Below are positions 8,053-17,749 of a DNA stretch of 64,000 bases, in pieces. The position numbers and the translations under genes are program-made. The notes under the pieces are model-generated. The model was not told the DNA's origin. It worked only from the letters and a program-made list of their open reading frames with translations, and did not search any database. How positions within the stretch are numbered: the first letter of the stretch is position 1; each line of letters starts with the position of its first letter. Origin of the DNA: a plasmid; sequence record NZ_CP044080.1, one strand, 5' to 3'.

Positions 8053-8126
8053 GCCCCGCTCGCCGCCGGGCCTGTATTGACCATGTCCGCCGTGAGCTGG
8101 GCGTTTCCGAGCGTCGCGCCTGCCAA

Positions 8127-8900
8127 GTGCTTCGCCAACATCGTTCGACACAACGCAAGTTCCCGAGAGGTCGAGCGGACGAGGTCCGCCTGGCCGCCGA
8201 CATGATTGAGCTGGCCCGCCAATATGGCCGTTATGGCTATCGCCGGATTGCGGCTCTGTTGCGGGATGCCGGGTGGCAGGTGAATGACAAGCGGGTTGAG
8301 CGCTTGTGGCGGCGAGAGGGGCTGAAAGTGCCGATGAAACAGCCGAAGAAAGGGCGATTGTGGCTGAACGACGGATCCTGCGTCCGGTTGCGGCCGCAAT
8401 ACCGGGATCATGTCTGGTCGTATGATTTTGTTCATTGCCGCACCGATGATGGCAAGGTGTTCCGGACGTTGAACATCCTTGATGAGTTCAGTCGCGAATG
8501 TCTGACGATCAAGGTGCGGCGCAGGCTGAATTCGACAGACGTGATTGATGCGCTGACCGATCTGTTCATCTTGCGCGGCGTGCCCGCCTTCATCCGTTCC
8601 GACAACGGTCCGGAGTTCATTGCCCTGGCCGTTCGTGACTGGATCGGGGCGGTCGGGGCAAAAACGGCTTACATCGAACCGGGATCGCCTTGGGAAAATG
8701 GCTATTGTGAGAGCTTCAACGCCCGCTTCCGCGATGAAATGTTGAATGGGGAAGTTTTCTACAGCCTCCGTGAGGCACAGATCCTGATCGAACAGTGGAG
8801 GAAGCATTACAACACGAAACGACCGCACAGCGCATTGGGCTATCGCCCACCAGCCCCAGAAGCCTTTGTGCCGGTGGACCAAAGGCTGGTCATGCACTAA
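8127..8900 (+). CDS. IS3-family transposase OrfB (DDE integrase core); likely expressed by -1 frameshift from OrfA, so the true N-terminus is upstream of this ATG
   Basis: Contains WSYDFV, LNILDEFSRECL, RSDNGPEF, YNTKRPHSALGYRPPAPE. Confidence 0.85.
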   Translation: MLRQHRSTQRKFPRGRADEVRLAADMIELARQYGRYGYRRIAALLRDAGWQVNDKRVERLWRREGLKVPMKQPKKGRLWLNDGSCVRLRPQYRDHVWSYDFVHCRTDDGKVFRTLNILDEFSRECLTIKVRRRLNSTDVIDALTDLFILRGVPAFIRSDNGPEFIALAVRDWIGAVGAKTAYIEPGSPWENGYCESFNARFRDEMLNGEVFYSLREAQILIEQWRKHYNTKRPHSALGYRPPAPEAFVPVDQRLVMH

Positions 8901-8920
8901 CTTTCAAAATGGACCACTCA

Positions 8921-9524
8921 GGTGGGGCTGATCAAGAGCCCCTTCGTCACCTTCTTCGGCGCCATCGGTATCGAGGGCGCGGACGTGGTGATGAACCTGG
9001 TCGTGCTGACGGCCGTGCTGTCGTCGCTGAACGCGGGGCTTTATTCGACGGGCCGCATCCTGCATTCCATGGCGATCTCGGGCTCGGCCCCGGCGGCGCT
9101 GGCGCGGATGAACAAGGCGGGCGTGCCCTATATGGGGATCGGCGTCACGGCGGCCGTCACCGTCCTGGGGGTGGTGCTGAACGCCTTCATGCCCTCGGAT
9201 GCCTTCGAGATCGCGATCAACGTGGCCGCGCTTGGCCTGATCTGCGCCTGGGGCACCATCGTCCTGTGTCAGCTGAAGTTGTGGAACCTGTCGCGCCAGG
9301 GCCTGATCCAGCGCCCCGAGTTCCGCATGTTCGGCGCGCCCTTCACCGGCATCCTGACGCTGGCCTTCCTGCTGGGAGTCGTGGTCCTGATGGCCTTCGA
9401 CTATCCGGTCGGAACCTGGACCGTCGCCTCGCTTCTGGTGATCGTGCCGGCGCTGATCCTGGGCTGGCATCTGGCGCGGGGCCGCATCGCGGCCATCGCC
9501 GCCGCAAGCGAGGCGGGCCAGTGA
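8921..9524 (+). pseudogene. Amino-acid permease (APC family, AnsP/GABA-permease-like) C-terminal fragment; 5' half deleted at the IS junction
   Basis: 200 aa of C-terminal transmembrane helices beginning immediately after the IS right end. No N-terminal part or start codon is present. Confidence 0.7.
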
Positions 9525-10447
9525 CCGCAGATGCCGGCAAGCCCCTGGTCGCGGTCATAGCGACCGGGGGCACCATCGCCAGCCGCAAGGACGCAAGCGG
9601 GGCCGCCCAACCCGTGCTGCGCGGGCAGGACCTGCTGGACCTGCTGCCGCCCCTGGACCTGCGCCTGCGCGCGGTGGAACTGCCCGCCAAGGACAGCTCT
9701 GCCCTGACGCTGGCCGACATGCAGGCGATCAGCGACGCGGTGGGTGCGGCCCTGGCCGATCCTGCGGTCGCGGGCGTCGTGGTCCTGCACGGCACCGACG
9801 CGATGGAGGAAACCGCGCTGCTGATCGCCCTGCAGCATGGTGCGCGCGGCCCGGTCGTGCTGACCGGGGCGCAGTTCTCCGCCGACAGCGACCGGCCCGA
9901 CGGGCCCGGCAACCTGGCCGATGCCCTGCGCGCGGTGCTGGCGGGGCCGGCGGGCGTGCGGCTGGCCTTCGGCGGCCGGCTGTTGCCGGTCTGGGGGCTT
10001 TACAAGGCCGCGTCCGACCGGGCCGACGCCTTTCGCCTGGCGGTGCCGGGCGACCATCCGGTGCCGCACCTGCCCGCGTCGCTGGGGCCGCAGCGCGTCG
10101 ATCTGGTTGCGATCCATCCCGGCGCGGACGCGCTGCATCTGGACGCCAGCCTGGCCGCCGGGGCGCAAGGGATCGTGCTTGTCGCGCTGGGATCGGGCAA
10201 TGCCTCGGCCCCCGTGGCCGAGGCGGTCGCCCGCGCCCATGCGGCCGGCGTGCCCGTGGTCGTCTCCAGCCGGGTGCCGGAGGGGGTTCTGACCCCTGCG
10301 TATGGCGGCGGCGGCGGCGGCCACGACCTGATGCGGGCCGGGGCCATTCACGCCCGCATCCTGCGCCCCGGACAGGCCCGCATCCTGCTGGCGGCGCTGA
10401 TCGCGAACGGCGTCCCGCCGGACCGGATGGCGGCGCATTTCGACTGA
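9521..10447 (+). CDS. ansA: L-asparaginase (bacterial type, AnsA/AnsB family)
   Basis: GTG start overlaps the permease stop. Contains [12 protein letters not shown] and [10 protein letters not shown] motifs. Confidence 0.8.
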
Positions 10448-11581: not shown

Positions 11582-11836
11582 ATGGCAAGAATTCCGAACG
11601 ACCTGATCGCAGACCTGCGCAATGCGCTGCACGACCTGGGGGGCGCCTCGGCCGAGGCGTCCGACCTGATCCGCGAACAGTTGGGGGCCGATGCGTCGCG
11701 TGCCTTCGACGATGTGCTGGCGGCCTGCTACCAGATCGTCGAGGCCGCAGCGGAATCGCGCACACTTGCAGACCCTGGCCTGGTGCCGCCCCGGCAACTC
11801 AACGGCCAGGCCATGCGGATCGCGGCGGCGGCCTAG
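11582..11836 (+). CDS. Small hypothetical acidic protein
   Basis: ORF only (MARIPNDLIADL...). No recognisable domain. It is convergent with the LuxR gene. Confidence 0.3.
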   Translation: MARIPNDLIADLRNALHDLGGASAEASDLIREQLGADASRAFDDVLAACYQIVEAAAESRTLADPGLVPPRQLNGQAMRIAAAA

Positions 11837-12999
11837 TCCAGCGGGTCCATCACAAAGCTGGCGCCGATGCTGGACGCCAGCCGGATCAGCTGCGTCCGGT
11901 TCGCGCAATCGGCCTTGGCCAGCAGCGACTTGACCTGCGAATTGATAGTCTCGACCGAGCGGTTGCGCCGGTCCGAGATCTGGCGGTTGGTCAGCCCCTC
12001 GGCCAGCAGCCCGACCAGCCGGGTTTCCGATTGCGTCAGCGTCAGCACCTTGGCCAGCAGGTCCAGGTCCAGCGGCAGCTCCCGCCCGGTATCCAGGCTG
12101 TAGATCGCATAGCCGTCCAGCCGCCGCTCGCCAAAGGCATCGGCGGACGTCAGCGGAGAGATTTCCACCGCAAGCCGCCCGCAACTGGCCTGACGCCCGC
12201 CAAGCGCCTCTTTCCGGGGCCGGGCGCCGCAGCGGCCGTGGTCGCGCGCATCCGCCGTCATCGCGTGCAGCCATTGCCGGTCGGGCGCGGCCCGCATCTC
12301 CAGCCGCCCCGCCCCATCGCGAAAGAACACCCCCGCCGCTTCGCGCTGGCGGGCGAATTCGACGTTCTCGCAGATGATCTGGCGATCGCCCCGGATCAGG
12401 CAGACGCCGATGCGCAGCCGGTCCATGGCCTCGGCCAGGCCCGCATAGGCGGTGCTCAACTGACGCAGCGGACGGCCCAGGTGCAGGGCCTTGGCGACAT
12501 GGGGCAGGATCGTGGCCAGGGCCGCGCGCTCGGCCCCGCTCATCGGCCCGTGCCGGCGCGAGAACTGGACCGAGAAGCGGTCGCGCGACAGGTCGTCCTT
12601 GTTCAGGACGGCGCCGGCCCGGTAATGGACGCCGTGCCGGGCCATCTCTTGCGCATTGGGTCGCAGGGCCAGGGCGCTGTGCTCGGGCGCCAGGACATCG
12701 TCGCCCACGATCTCGATCCGGTCGCCGCGCGCGGAATGGCGGGCGATGATCTCCTGGTCGGCGAACTCCTCCTCGGCAAAGCGATGGATGTAGCCGTCGA
12801 CCAGAACCGGGTCGTAGGCGGCCGAGAAATGGGGCGCCCGCAGCTGACGCGCGCGCGGATCGGCCTCGTCCAGTTCAAAGATGATGCAGCCCCGCGCACC
12901 CACGGCCCGCGCGATCCGGTCAAGCACCCCAGGCCACCGACCGGCGTCCAGCACGGTGTCGTAGATGTCCAGGATGACCTGTTCGTCGGGCTCTTGCAT
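11833..12999 (-). CDS. LuxR-family transcriptional regulator (C-terminal GerE-type HTH, large N-terminal sensory region)
   Basis: The C-terminus TQSETRLVGLLAEGLTNRQISDRRNRSVETINSQVKSLLAKADCANRTQL is a LuxR HTH. It is divergent from the haem-protein operon. Confidence 0.75.
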   Translation of the reverse strand: MQEPDEQVILDIYDTVLDAGRWPGVLDRIARAVGARGCIIFELDEADPRARQLRAPHFSAAYDPVLVDGYIHRFAEEEFADQEIIARHSARGDRIEIVGDDVLAPEHSALALRPNAQEMARHGVHYRAGAVLNKDDLSRDRFSVQFSRRHGPMSGAERAALATILPHVAKALHLGRPLRQLSTAYAGLAEAMDRLRIGVCLIRGDRQIICENVEFARQREAAGVFFRDGAGRLEMRAAPDRQWLHAMTADARDHGRCGARPRKEALGGRQASCGRLAVEISPLTSADAFGERRLDGYAIYSLDTGRELPLDLDLLAKVLTLTQSETRLVGLLAEGLTNRQISDRRNRSVETINSQVKSLLAKADCANRTQLIRLASSIGASFVMDPLD

Positions 13000-13272: not shown

Positions 13273-15135
13273 ATGCGCACGGGGAAAGCATCTTGCCTTG
13301 CGGCCGGCCTGGCCATCGCGGTTCTGCTGGCTGGCCCGGTGGCGGCCCAGCCCGAAAACGACACCCCCCCTTGCGAGGCGCGCGAGGCACTGGCCCATGC
13401 GCTGGCCCGCAACCCCGACCTGCGCTGGCCCCAGATCCGCGCCGCCTGCGACCAGCGGATCGCCGAGGCGCGGGCCGCCGACCCCGTGGGACGCGCCTGG
13501 TTTGCCAATGCGGCGAACGGGTTCGAAGGCGTTCCCCTGGTCCTGCTGAAGGTGCTGCCCGACCTCGCCCCGGAAATCTGGGGCCGGCCCGAGGACTTCT
13601 TTTCCGGTTTCGGCCTGTTTCCCGACCCGGACATTCCCGACCGCATCCTGCCGCGCGGCCTGGGGGTCGCGGGGGACGGTCGCCCCCTGGACGACCAGGG
13701 GCGGCCCCTGGGCGAAATCGACTATGGCGCAAAGGGAAAGCCGCTGTTCGTCACGCTGGCCTGCGGCGCCTGCCACAGCGGAGAGGCCGAGATCGACGGC
13801 CGCCGCATCGTCTATGACGGCGCGCCGAACACCCGGTTCGACGTGCGCAAGTGGCGGGCCGCCTTCAGCGCGCTGCGCCAGGACTATCTGTCCGACGAAC
13901 AGATCGGCACCCCGGACAAGCCGGGCGAGACCACCCGCCGGCTTCTGGCGCTGGTCGCCGCCAAGCCCGCCGGTTTCTTTGCCCGGGGACTGCCCGGCAT
14001 CCCCGAGGACCGCGTGGCCCCCGTGGACGCGGGGCAGCGCGCCATCTTTGCCGCCGCGGCCCCGCAGATCCTGTCCGCCCTGGCCAGGGGCAGCGAGGTT
14101 CGCGCGGCGGCCGTCGCGCTGCAACAACGCGCGGGGTCAAGCTATGGCCACCCGGATTCGCCCGGCCTTGCCGGCGAAAGCGCCGGCCAGTCGGACGGCA
14201 GCGGCGATCTTCTGGCAGACCTGCTGGCCGCGCAGGCGGCCGACCGGCTTGACGCCCTGCAGGCCGACCCCCTGCCCGAGGCGCTGCCGCGCTTTGCCAC
14301 GGTGACGGACATGCCGGCGGTCTGGAACCAGGCGGACCGCGCGACCGGGCAATGGGACGGCAGCGTGCTGGACCGATTCTGGCGCAACATCGCGGCCCAG
14401 TTGCCCATCGTCGGCAAGCCCGGCAGGCTGGACCTGTGGAACGCCGCGCTGGCCGGGGAATACCTGACCACCCTGCCCTCGCCGCCCTGGCCTTTTGACG
14501 TGGACCTGCCCAAGGCCGCACGGGGCGAGGCGATCTTTGCCCGGAACTGCGGCACCTGCCACCGGCCGCGCAACGACAGCCGCTATCCCCAGATCGGCAC
14601 CGATGCGAACCGCGCCCGCGTGCTGAACGCCGCCGCCAGCCAGGTGCTGTTGCAGGGGTTCCGCGCCGCCTGCCACGACCCGGATTTCCACTATCAGGAC
14701 CGGCTGGGCCGCCGCGTGGCGCCCTGCGCCATGCCCGATTACCGCATTCTGCGCGACACGGTCCGGCCGGCGAACCAGGGCTACCTGGCCCCGCCGTTGG
14801 ACGGGATCTGGCTGCGCGCGCCCTATCTGCACAACGGATCGGTCCCGACGCTGGCGCAGCTTTTGCAGCCCGCGACAAGGCCCGCGCGCTTCCTGCGCGG
14901 CGCCATCGCCTATGATGGCGCGGGCATGGGCTGGGTCTGGCAGCCTGACCAGCGCGAGCGGCTGGCGCCGCGTCATCCGACGCTGTGGGTCCACGACACG
15001 GGGCGGGACGGGCTGGGCAACGGCGGCCATGACACCGACCTGATGATCGACGGCCGCCTGCACCGGCTGGACTGGTCCGACCCCGCCCATGCGGCCGAGT
15101 TCGAGATGCTGATGGAATACCTCAAGACCCTTTGA
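13273..15135 (+). CDS. Secreted di-haem c-type cytochrome (two CxxCH motifs), about 620 aa
   Basis: Signal-peptide-like N-terminus (MRTGKASCLAAGLAIAVLLAGPVAAQ). Haem motifs CGACH and CGTCH are about 260 residues apart. First gene of the operon. Confidence 0.75.
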   Translation: MRTGKASCLAAGLAIAVLLAGPVAAQPENDTPPCEAREALAHALARNPDLRWPQIRAACDQRIAEARAADPVGRAWFANAANGFEGVPLVLLKVLPDLAPEIWGRPEDFFSGFGLFPDPDIPDRILPRGLGVAGDGRPLDDQGRPLGEIDYGAKGKPLFVTLACGACHSGEAEIDGRRIVYDGAPNTRFDVRKWRAAFSALRQDYLSDEQIGTPDKPGETTRRLLALVAAKPAGFFARGLPGIPEDRVAPVDAGQRAIFAAAAPQILSALARGSEVRAAAVALQQRAGSSYGHPDSPGLAGESAGQSDGSGDLLADLLAAQAADRLDALQADPLPEALPRFATVTDMPAVWNQADRATGQWDGSVLDRFWRNIAAQLPIVGKPGRLDLWNAALAGEYLTTLPSPPWPFDVDLPKAARGEAIFARNCGTCHRPRNDSRYPQIGTDANRARVLNAAASQVLLQGFRAACHDPDFHYQDRLGRRVAPCAMPDYRILRDTVRPANQGYLAPPLDGIWLRAPYLHNGSVPTLAQLLQPATRPARFLRGAIAYDGAGMGWVWQPDQRERLAPRHPTLWVHDTGRDGLGNGGHDTDLMIDGRLHRLDWSDPAHAAEFEMLMEYLKTL

Positions 15136-16106
15136 CCCTTCCCCCGCCAGGCACGAGGCCCGCCGTGATCCAGCAAGATGCCCAGACCGTCGCCGATATC
15201 CAGACCCAGATCATGCAAGCCACGGCCCCGCATTTGCGCGGGCAGCATCCCAAGATGCACGGCTGCGTCGCCGCCCTGTTCGAGGTCCTGCCGCTGCCGC
15301 CGCCGCTGGACCAGGGCCTGTTCGCCCGGCCCGCCCGGTTCGATGCGCTGGTGCGCCTTTCCAACGGCAGGGAAAGGGACGACCGCAAGCCGGATGCGCA
15401 TGGCATGGCGATCAAGCTGCTGGGTGTTGCGGGCGAAAAGGCCATGCCCGAGGCGCCCGAGGGCGAACAGGATTTCATCCTGGTGGACAACCCGGTGTTC
15501 TTCATTCGCAACGCGGCGGATTATGCCCGCTTCATGGCTCTGGTCGCTGCCGACAGGAAGGCGGAGTTCCTGGCCTATCTTCACCAGACCCACCCCGAGG
15601 ATGTTGCCGTGCTGACGTCATTCGCGCAGCACATCCAGGCCGACCCGCTGTCGGCGACCTACTGGGGACAGGTGCCCTATGCGCTGGGACCGGACCCCGC
15701 CACCGCCTGCCGCTATCGCGCGGTGCCGCGCGTGCCCGCCCCGGACGACAGCCCCGGCGCCACGCCCGATTACCTGCGCGAGCGGATGGTGGCGCGGCTG
15801 GCGCCCGAGGCGTCGCCGGTGGTCTATGACCTTCAGGTGCAACTGCGCCAGGACGCCGATGCGGCGGTGATCGAGAACCCGACCGTCGAATGGGACACCC
15901 CCTTCGTGACCGTCGGCACGCTGACCATTCCGCCCCAGGACTTCGATACGCCCGAACGCCGCGCCCGGGGCGAGGGCCTGCGCTTTTCGCCCTGGCACGC
16001 CCTGGCGGCGCATCGTCCCCTCGGAGAGATCAACGCCGTGCGGCGCGTGGTCTATCCGGCCAGCCAGGCGCTGCGCGCCGCCAGCAGCGGGAAGGCCGCG
16101 TCATGA
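15132..16106 (+). CDS. Catalase-related haem protein (mini-catalase / catalase-related hydroperoxide-transforming enzyme family)
   Basis: Catalase-core-like distal region (RGQHPKMHGCVAALFEV, LVRLSNG). Size about 320 aa. The start codon is uncertain (TTG 15132 or GTG 15165). The stop overlaps the next start (ATGA). Confidence 0.65.
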   Translation: MTLPPPGTRPAVIQQDAQTVADIQTQIMQATAPHLRGQHPKMHGCVAALFEVLPLPPPLDQGLFARPARFDALVRLSNGRERDDRKPDAHGMAIKLLGVAGEKAMPEAPEGEQDFILVDNPVFFIRNAADYARFMALVAADRKAEFLAYLHQTHPEDVAVLTSFAQHIQADPLSATYWGQVPYALGPDPATACRYRAVPRVPAPDDSPGATPDYLRERMVARLAPEASPVVYDLQVQLRQDADAAVIENPTVEWDTPFVTVGTLTIPPQDFDTPERRARGEGLRFSPWHALAAHRPLGEINAVRRVVYPASQALRAASSGKAAS

Positions 16107-17749
16107 CCGCCACCGCCCGGCCCCACCCCCCGCGCGACACCTCGGCCGACGGCTGGGGCAACCGCCTGCAAGCCTATGCGCTAAGCCATTTTCCGGCGCT
16201 GTGGCGCGGCGTCATGGCGGTGCCGCCGCTGCGGCGCCTGGCCAACGACAAGATCGTGGACATGGCCGTGCGCCGTGCGCCCGCCCGCCCCATGGCCTTC
16301 GGCGCGATGACCGCGCGCGCAGACAGCGCGGCCAGTTGCAGCGCCGAATACACCTCGTGGGAAATGCTGACCGACCTGGGCTGGTACAAGCGCCACCTGC
16401 CGCAGGTTCCCCTGCGCACGGACCCGCCGCTTGACGACGTGGTCGCGCTGTTTCGGACCGATCCGGGCGGCGGCGTCCCGTCCGAGGACAGCAGCGTCCT
16501 TTTCATGTCCTTTGCGCAATGGTTCACCGACGGCTTCCTGATGACGGACGCGGTGGACCGGCGCCGCACCCACAGCAGCCACCAGATCGACCTGAATCCG
16601 CTTTACGGCCTGACGCGGGCCGAAACCGATGCGGTGCGCCTGCGCTCCGAGGAACGGGGGCGCCGCGGCCGGCTGAAGGTCGAGCGGATCAACGGCGAGG
16701 ACTTCGCGCCCCGGTATTACGACGACGCCGGCAACCCTCGCGCCGAATTCGGCGCGCTGCGCAAGCCGCTGCGTCTGGACGAATGGCGATCCAAGGCGCC
16801 ACCGGACCGGGACGAGGCGGTCAAGGCAACCCTGTTCGCCTTCGCGGGCGAGCGGGCGAACAGCACGCCTTATACCGCCATGCTGAACACGTTGTTCCTG
16901 CGCGAACACAACCGCCTAGCCGGCGTGATCGAGAAAGCCCACCCCGGCTGGGACGACGAGCGCGTGTTCCAGACCGCGCGCAACGTGACCATCGTCCTGC
17001 TGATCAAGATCGTGATCGAGGAATACATCAACCATATCTCGCCCTATCATTTCCAGCTGACCGCCGATCCGGCCGTCTGCTGGCGCAAGTACTGGAACCG
17101 GCAGAACTGGATTCCTTTGGAATTCAACATGCTTTATCGCTGGCACAGCCTGACGCCGGACCGCTTTGCCATAGCCGGTCAGGAGATCCTGGCAACTGAC
17201 CTGCTGTTCAATCACCAGCCGCTGGTCCAGCATGGGCTGAATGCAATGATGCAGGCGGCAAGCGACCAGCGCGCCCGCCAGATCGGGCTGTTCAACACGC
17301 CCGATTTCCTGATCCCCGTCGAGGCGAGCACCCTGCAGCAATCCCGAGACCAGCGGCTGGCCTCGTACAACGACTACCGGCAGGCCTTCGGCTATGGCCG
17401 GGTCAGGCGGTTCGACCAGATCACCGGGGATCCGCGCCGGATCGAGGCACTTCAGGCGCTTTACGGCGACGTGGATCAGGTCGAGTTCATGGTGGGACTG
17501 TTCGCCGAGGACATCTCGCCCCGCTCGGCGGTGCCGCCGCTGATCGGGCGGATGGTGGCTCTGGACGCCTTTTCGCAGGCGCTGACCAATCCCCTGATGG
17601 CGGAATGCGTGTTCACGCCGGCCACCTTTTCGGAACCCGGATGGCAGGCGATCCAGGAAACCCACCGCTTGCAGGACATTCTGGACCGCAACACGCCACC
17701 CGGGACGGCCCCGCCCCGGGTTACGATGACGCTGCCGCCCGCGACCTGA
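16103..17749 (+). CDS. Animal-haem-peroxidase family protein, cyclooxygenase / fatty-acid alpha-dioxygenase-like
   Basis: COX-like motifs are present: [14 protein letters not shown] (distal His region), [28 protein letters not shown] (matches the COX [20 protein letters not shown] region), and NMLYRWHSL (catalytic Tyr plus proximal His, NxLYHWH in COX). Confidence 0.8.
   Translation: [548 protein letters not shown]

Follow-up and report, generated by a model that had tools for sequence, protein, structure and literature searches.

We describe here a gene in a 64,000-nucleotide stretch of plasmid DNA (sequence record NZ_CP044080.1; the whole stretch is referred to below as the window) whose product we take, with a probability of roughly 0.7, to be a fatty-acid dioxygenase with non-covalently bound haem b that belongs to the bacterial cyclooxygenase (COX)-like clade, is of the 10S-dioxygenase (10S-DOX) type and feeds hydroperoxide to its operon partners. 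The open reading frame lies on the plus strand at 16103..17749, runs from ATG to stop and gives a product of 548 amino acids, which probably makes fatty-acid hydroperoxides for two neighboring haem enzymes rather than prostaglandins. We favor the 10S-DOX-type assignment because the protein carries the YRWH signature, combines an FTDxF motif with Arg251 in its distal pocket and lacks the hallmarks of a peroxidase, and because its gene is translationally coupled to that of a catalase-related protein of the kind that converts fatty-acid hydroperoxides. A first-pass annotation of this DNA had argued for a true dioxygenase rather than a simple peroxidase; these features support that core inference on partly different grounds, while the likeness to COX leaves out the residues for making prostaglandin endoperoxide.

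The protein is identical to WP_150349632.1/QEU07113.1 of Paracoccus yeei, which bears the database name 'peroxidase family protein', and PGAP places the gene at the same coordinates on the P. yeei plasmid pTT13-1 (98.5% identical). Three P. yeei isolates, recovered from the skin, eye and urine of humans, carry plasmids whose identity to the window DNA is 98.3-98.5%. The host is this human-associated, heterotrophic alphaproteobacterium, not the marine-type organism first suggested, and the COX-like operon is plasmid-borne. A scan of the GTDB species representatives with the COX-like protein returned no P. yeei locus; the top match, 62% identical, came from Rhodovulum. GLC62885.1, a protein of 511 amino acids filed under the green alga Pleodorina starrii, shares a 90%-identity cluster with the P. 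yeei protein and is probably Paracoccus contamination of the algal assembly. The gene is already public under generic names, and both the COX-like family and its cyanobacterial prototype are already known. Our literature search found no paper that deals with the window protein, another alphaproteobacterial member or the three-gene cluster, and nothing relevant on a cyclooxygenase, a peroxidase or oxylipins of P. yeei.

Homology to COX extends over almost the whole protein. The Pfam family An_peroxidase (PF03098) matches at E 1.6e-45, and a single-sequence search aligned human prostaglandin H synthase 2 (PGHS-2) with query residues 25-530 at E 3.7e-61; LPO, MPO, peroxinectin and plant alpha-dioxygenase (alpha-DOX) reached only ~1e-9 to 1e-18 in the same search. 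With a family profile made from 21 relatives of 49-79% identity, in which residue invariance was also scored, the COX-2 match rose to E 1.5e-85 and those of LPO, MPO and alpha-DOX to ~1e-13 to 1e-25. The top PDB matches are PGHS-2 and PGHS-1. These comparisons indicate that the window protein is a COX-clade homologue by descent rather than by chance likeness, and that it is nearer to PGHS than to peroxidases of the MPO/LPO type; with its best similarity to PGHS, it falls in the Family 4 'cyclooxygenase' branch of the peroxidase-cyclooxygenase superfamily (PF03098). NCBIfam gave no match for the COX-like protein and none for the catalase-related protein. The COX-like family comprises 3199 matches at E<=1e-10 and 385 loci among the GTDB species representatives, and ranges over Alphaproteobacteria, Planctomycetes, Cyanobacteria and Actinobacteria, with relatives named 'prostaglandin-endoperoxide synthase 2' by JGI pipelines. 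Brash and colleagues (2014, J Biol Chem 289:13101) are reported to have described a linoleate 10S-dioxygenase of Nostoc punctiforme (Npun_R5469) with a catalase-related 10S-hydroperoxide lyase as its neighbor. Sequences of bacterial "cyclooxygenases" have been on record for a long time (PMC4420034).

For the active site we used ovine COX-1 numbering, taken as the 5f1a chain index + 31, which reproduces Tyr385, His388, Gly526 and Ser530. The elements discussed below lie along the gene as follows.

16511..16537, plus strand: distal-helix motif FAQWFTDGF, with Gln139 at Gln203 and Asp143 (16529-16531) at the distal His207 of COX

16568..16609, plus strand: block at residues 156-169, aligned with COX TNGLGHGVDLNHIYG, the His226/His232 loop

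16853..16855, plus strand: codon of Arg251, an invariant arginine at the COX Val291 position

16958..17041, plus strand: substrate-channel helix, residues 286-313, containing Tyr308 (Tyr348 of COX), Ile309 (Val349) and Ser313 (Ser353)

17045-17047, plus strand: Tyr315 (Tyr355 of COX), just after the channel helix

17126..17152, plus strand: NMLYRWHSL, residues 342-350, the catalytic block with the YRWH signature of linoleate dioxygenases

17549..17569, plus strand: terminal substrate motif GRMVALDA, with Arg483, Val485 and Ala489 at the Glu524, Gly526 and Ser530 positions of COX

In both pairwise and profile alignments, Tyr345 (17135-17137) corresponds to the radical-forming Tyr385 and His348 (17144-17146) to the proximal haem ligand His388, as the first-pass annotation had read from the likeness of NMLYRWHSL to NxLYHWH. 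The segment Tyr345-Arg-Trp-His348 is invariant in the 21 relatives, and LYRWH is found in 119/120 best database matches. Alignment with PGHS-2 shows that Trp347 (Trp387), Leu344 (Leu384) and Gln139 (Gln203) are kept as well. The three peptides quoted earlier, at residues 156-169, 286-313 and 342-350, are all present, and the proposed match of the second to a COX helix holds, with Tyr308 aligned to Tyr348 and Tyr315 following at Tyr355.

On the distal side, the COX segment FAQHFT-H-QFF, which holds His207, aligns with FAQWFT-D143-GFL of the window protein by both methods, and the distal residue is therefore an aspartate. Asp143 is invariant in the 21 relatives, as are Gln139, His160, Arg251 and Tyr308, and the motif FAQWF[TA]D[GS]F occurs in 112/120 best database matches. 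With Asp143 at the distal position, one of the two haem-histidine positions is kept; the earlier claim that the catalytic tyrosine and both haem histidines are retained thus stands for Tyr345 and the proximal His348 and falls for the distal residue. The block at residues 156-169, which had been taken for the distal-histidine block, lies ~20 residues downstream of that position and aligns with COX TNGLGHGVDLNHIYG, in the same register in the profile alignment; this COX region is homologous to the calcium loop of animal peroxidases. His157 and His160 were considered as distal histidines and rejected on the register of both alignments. His160 (16580-16582), which lies in the counterpart of the calcium-binding loop of animal peroxidases, is invariant across the bacterial family though it is not the distal histidine.

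By our register count on the MPO sequence, Arg251 also falls on what we take to be the distal Arg239 of MPO, and Thr142 and Ser254 presumably sit at the ester-forming Asp94 and Glu242 of MPO. Published motif definitions for animal-type haem peroxidases place the distal histidine in GQxxDHD and include an ester-forming aspartate and glutamate (PMC4420034); the window protein lacks these classical hallmarks, there being no distal histidine and FAQWFTDGF standing instead of GQxxDHD. The N. punctiforme linoleate 10S-DOX is, among the papers we searched, the only characterised bacterial member (PMC13049297, a 2026 structural comparison of linoleate dioxygenases), and we set the window protein against it through the motifs printed in that paper. 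The cyanobacterial enzyme has 'F143tdsF' against COX 'F205thqF' and, where COX has Val291, a 'unique and conserved Arg', and it makes 10S-hydroperoxides from oleate and linoleate, which a neighbor-encoded catalase-related protein then cleaves (PMC13049297). In the window protein the corresponding features are F141TDGF, Arg251, Tyr345 within LYRWH (344-348) and Val485/Ala489.

Among the COX channel residues Tyr355, Arg120, Glu524, Gly526 and Ser530, Tyr355 alone is kept, with the others replaced by Ala55 (itself invariant), Arg483, Val485 and Ala489, respectively, and the position of COX-1 Tyr504 is occupied by Met463. There is no epidermal growth factor (EGF) domain, as the alignment begins at COX chain residue ~57-58, past that domain, and only 24 query residues precede it. 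The protein has no signal peptide.

The COX-like gene is the third and last of an operon, and the genes upstream of it are as follows.

11833..12999, minus strand: helix-turn-helix regulator with a LuxR/GerE C-terminal domain, transcribed divergently upstream

13273..15135, plus strand: RoxA-like di-haem c-type cytochrome of 620 amino acids, with a signal peptide, two CXXCH motifs and a MauG-type motif

15165..16106, plus strand: catalase-related mini-haem protein, 313 amino acids by the PGAP start, named 'catalase family protein' (WP_099650331-type)

The ATG of the COX-like gene and the stop codon of the catalase-related gene overlap (ATGA), and the di-haem and catalase-related genes are separated by 29 nt, which indicates that the three co-directional genes form one operon. 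The LuxR/GerE-type gene is, by position only, a possible regulator of this operon; a promoter/terminator consensus scan of the operon gave nothing above shuffled expectation.

The haem site of the catalase-related protein consists of R25-x-x-H28, with the distal histidine, Asp108 where catalase has Asn148, and R293-x-x-x-Y297, with the proximal tyrosine; the distal histidine and the proximal Arg-x-x-x-Tyr are invariant in its family, and the protein has no signal peptide. A sequence search of the PDB returned nothing significant, just coral allene oxide synthase (cAOS) at E 0.62. With an AlphaFold2 model (pLDDT 91), Foldseek placed the Mycobacterium avium 33-kDa catalase-related protein and cAOS as the best matches. 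The di-haem protein carries CGACH at 164-168, CGTCH at 426-430, PYLHNGSVP at 517 and a conserved C-terminal EYLKTL, and matches PF21419 at E 1.2e-19. Its only significant PDB relative, by sequence search and by Foldseek with an AlphaFold2 model (pLDDT 84), is the rubber oxygenase RoxA (4b2n), and its scores fall short of the NCBIfam cut-offs for RoxA, RoxB, RoxC and CytoC_perox. RoxA has served as the template for modelling the di-haem fatty-acid 10S-DOX and 7,10-diol synthase of Pseudomonas aeruginosa (PMC4496055). A protein named 'y4iM' in Sinorhizobium fredii HH103 (our P0243) is 62% identical to the di-haem protein, and more distant COX-like genes of the 'peroxidase family' are also found on replicons associated with symbiosis in rhizobia.

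The cluster of di-haem, catalase-related and COX-like genes recurs in Rhodovulum, Amaricoccus, Roseibium and Mesorhizobium and, rearranged, in Methylobacterium. Partner counts were taken at species level over the best 80 of the 385 GTDB loci. A catalase-related gene lies <=10 kb from the COX-like gene in 14/80 loci, mostly adjacent to it, and a cytochrome P450 gene lies directly upstream instead in 22/80 (L027 at 8542-9972; also L023, L037-L039, L041, L048, L049, L052, L054, L066 and L071, among others). Cytochrome P450 is the other known class of hydroperoxide-converting partner, and these loci are the unfused bacterial counterpart of the fungal fusions of dioxygenase and cytochrome P450 (DOX-CYP). 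Loci with either partner are interspersed on the dioxygenase tree, and the partner type therefore does not define clades. Scytonema homologues that adjoin catalase-related genes are 45% identical to the window protein (E 1e-158). In Rhodovulum (L001, 11703-13940) the next gene downstream of the COX-like one encodes a patatin-like phospholipase, in Mesorhizobium (L085, 9326-12238) such a gene follows with a single small gene in between, and a catalase-related-patatin fusion protein is known (P0164, 542 amino acids), which suggests that substrate is released from phospholipids. Together, these gene neighborhoods link the COX-like family both with the freeing of fatty acids from lipids and with the making and further conversion of fatty-acid hydroperoxides. 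The catalase-related proteins of the Roseibium, Mesorhizobium, Rhodovulum and Amaricoccus clusters are tandems of two such domains, 664-668 amino acids in length (L084 4948-6954, L085 4632-6635, L001 7958-9952 and L003 6498-8504); P. yeei has the first domain only, and the second carries Thr-His, as in cAOS.

The comparisons above show the homology, the equivalent residues, the structure of the operon, the conservation of the cluster and the folds of the partner proteins; by analogy with the chemistry of COX, linoleate diol synthase and 10S-DOX, we infer a catalytic activity, a substrate and an order of steps. A hydroperoxide would oxidise the His348-ligated haem, with Gln139, Asp143 and Arg251 lining the distal pocket in place of the Gln/His pair, and the oxidised haem would generate a radical on Tyr345. 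A C18 unsaturated fatty acid, sitting in a predicted channel of Tyr308, Ile309, Ser313, Tyr315, Val485 and Ala489, would lose an allylic or bis-allylic hydrogen to this radical, and addition of O2 to the resulting fatty-acid radical would give a fatty-acid hydroperoxide. The hydroperoxide may then pass to the catalase-related protein (His28 distal, Tyr297 proximal) for rearrangement or cleavage, in a reaction of the lyase, allene-oxide-synthase or peroxidase type, with the RoxA-like di-haem cytochrome c as a candidate for a third oxidative step in the periplasm.

Several points weigh against this scheme. Cis-vaccenate (18:1 delta-11) is the main fatty acid of Paracoccus lipids, which are not known to contain linoleate, and the natural substrate may thus be exogenous or different. 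We found no enzymology for the window protein or for any alphaproteobacterial member, and the cyanobacterial relatives with the same gene pair are only 44-46% identical to it. The catalase-related partner has Gln-His and an aspartate where the cyanobacterial homologues have Ala-His and an asparagine (catalase Asn148); with both distal positions different, the partner reaction may differ too. A simple linear pathway of three enzymes is also not obvious, since the di-haem cytochrome must be periplasmic and the other two proteins have no signal peptide.

A more specific proposal is that the operon forms an oxylipin pathway of three haem enzymes acting on host-derived unsaturated fatty acids, such as the linoleic and oleic acids of skin; we offer it by analogy and as speculation that is unlikely to hold. 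If it were true, P. yeei could make (R)-1-octen-3-ol and 10-oxo-decenoic acid, on the model of Nostoc, or signaling oxylipins like those of P. aeruginosa. The RoxA-like enzyme and the Gln-His/Asp pocket of the partner could instead support chemistry not yet described. The mosquito attractant (R)-1-octen-3-ol occurs on human skin, where its biosynthetic source is unclear and the skin microbiome is suspected (PMC13127324, 2026). An operon active on host lipids would give bacteria a new way of making oxylipins or volatile C8 alcohols.

It is rather unlikely that the window protein is a radical oxygenase of a hydrophobic substrate other than a fatty acid, such as an isoprenoid, a polyene or a precursor of a secondary metabolite. 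The di-haem protein has as its nearest solved relative RoxA, an enzyme that cleaves polyisoprene; catalase-fold enzymes can serve alkaloid biosynthesis, with chanoclavine synthase among the fold matches; and Paracoccus, not known to contain linoleate, would fit such a substrate. Nevertheless, all characterised dioxygenases of the COX, linoleate diol synthase, alpha-DOX and 10S-DOX branches use fatty acids, the neighbors of the COX-like gene in relatives include patatin lipases and an acyltransferase, and the operon flanks hold no biosynthetic core genes for a polyketide synthase, non-ribosomal peptide synthetase or terpene synthase.

We consider it improbable, a little more so than an unusual substrate, that the protein is a plain peroxidase that detoxifies H2O2 or lipid hydroperoxides within an operon for defense against oxidative stress. 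All three proteins belong to families named for peroxide enzymes (PF03098, catalase and di-haem cytochrome c peroxidase), and the protein has Arg251 and Gln139, distal residues of animal-type peroxidases; however, the catalytic distal histidine is missing family-wide, and threonine and serine presumably stand where MPO has its ester-forming Asp94 and Glu242. A stress-defense role would also not explain why the YRWH tyrosine is strictly conserved or why the protein has membrane-binding helices and COX-like channel residues, and the upstream P450 genes as an alternative partner, together with the nearby patatins, point to lipid oxygenation.

The host is not known to make C20 polyunsaturated fatty acids, which argues against a prostaglandin G/H synthase that converts arachidonate to endoperoxide. 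That a true cyclooxygenase is encoded here is highly improbable: the PGHS-2 and PGHS-1 matches, the retained Tyr385, His388, Tyr348, Tyr355, Trp387 and Gln203 and the JGI label of the relatives speak for it, but the substrate-anchoring and cyclisation residues Arg120, Glu524, Gly526 and Ser530 are replaced, the distal His207 is Asp143, the EGF domain is missing, and the sole characterised clade member makes a simple 10S-hydroperoxide from C18 acids (PMC13049297).

On the fatty-acid dioxygenase reading, an enzyme type with an unusual Asp/Arg distal pocket is encoded on a plasmid of an opportunist associated with humans. Its operon partners are two more haem enzymes, whose relatives oxidise fatty acids or convert their hydroperoxides, and the cluster is kept in several alphaproteobacterial genera. 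These results also carry a warning for annotation: 'prostaglandin-endoperoxide synthase 2' claims more than the sequence supports, and 'peroxidase family protein' claims less.

Elsewhere in the window, an amino-acid permease that is intact on pTT13-1 (482 amino acids) is represented at 8076-9524 by two frames, 8127-8900 and 8922-9524, a split that suggests a frameshift, a pseudogene or an error in sequencing. Collinearity with pTT13-1 places further plasmid cargo within the window at ~31.7-34.3 kb, ~35-42 kb and ~20-30 kb. This cargo comprises a uracil-DNA-binding protein of the UdgX family and its radical-SAM DNA repair partner, an iolBCDE cluster for inositol catabolism together with a sugar ABC transporter, and an exopolysaccharide block of glycosyltransferases, a pyruvyl transferase and GlgX.

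Comparison with known systems sets out where the P. yeei operon resembles characterised enzymes and where it departs from them. With animal COX-1 and COX-2 the window protein shares full-length homology (E 1e-61 to 1e-85), non-covalent haem and the equivalents of His388, Tyr385, Tyr348, Tyr355, Trp387, Leu384, Ser353 and Gln203; it differs in the substitutions His207 to Asp, Val291 to Arg, Arg120 to Ala, Glu524 to Arg, Gly526 to Val, Ser530 to Ala and Tyr504 to Met, and in lacking both the EGF domain and the signal peptide. The fungal linoleate diol synthases and DOX-CYP fusions (8R-, 9R- and 10R-DOX) have the same YRWH tyrosyl-radical motif and likewise pair a hydroperoxide-forming dioxygenase with a second haem enzyme that converts the hydroperoxide. 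The fungal enzymes, however, keep the distal histidine and have the P450 fused to them, whereas the partner in the window is a separate catalase-related protein, and sequence identity to them is much lower.

The di-haem protein resembles RoxA and the P. aeruginosa fatty-acid di-haem cytochrome c peroxidases PA2077/PA2078 in being a periplasmic protein of ~620-680 amino acids with two CXXCH haems, a PY(L/F)HNGSVP motif and a C-terminal leucine. The TM-score to RoxA is only ~0.42, and the haem motifs are spaced by 262 residues, compared with 199 in RoxA and 245/235 in PA2077/PA2078. The catalase-related protein shares with cAOS (1u5u) and the M. avium protein (3e4w/3e4y) the mini-catalase core fold (Foldseek E 5e-16 to 7e-14, TM-score ~0.7), the distal histidine and the proximal tyrosine with an arginine four residues upstream. 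It is 19-23% identical to these proteins, is not fused to a lipoxygenase, and has glutamine, rather than threonine or valine, before the distal histidine and aspartate in place of catalase Asn148.

The closest counterpart is the Nostoc 10S-DOX, a protein of 542 amino acids with membrane-binding helices B-D and no EGF domain, which is itself only ~21% identical to 10R-DOX (PMC13049297). The window protein is likewise ~545 amino acids long without an EGF domain, has N-terminal helices of the membrane-binding-domain type and is encoded beside a catalase-related gene. In the cyanobacterial enzyme the central motif is IMxxY305IxxIT310PYxxxL, the catalytic tyrosine is Tyr342, and Ile483 and Ala487 occupy the COX Gly526 and Ser530 positions (PMC13049297, its Table 2 for the last two). 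Against these printed motifs, the window protein reads IVxxY308IxxIS313PYxxxL, with conservative Met to Val and Thr to Ser changes, and its terminal motif departs from ARxIGxDAFxQA by Ile to Val and Gly to Ala, leaving RxI/VxxDAFxQA as the common form and Val485/Ala486 where the 10S-DOX has Ile483/Gly484. The two systems also differ in gene order, which is reversed in the window, with the catalase-related gene upstream and translationally coupled; in the extra gene for a RoxA-like di-haem cytochrome c; and in the host, which here is a heterotrophic, human-associated alphaproteobacterium that carries the operon on a plasmid.

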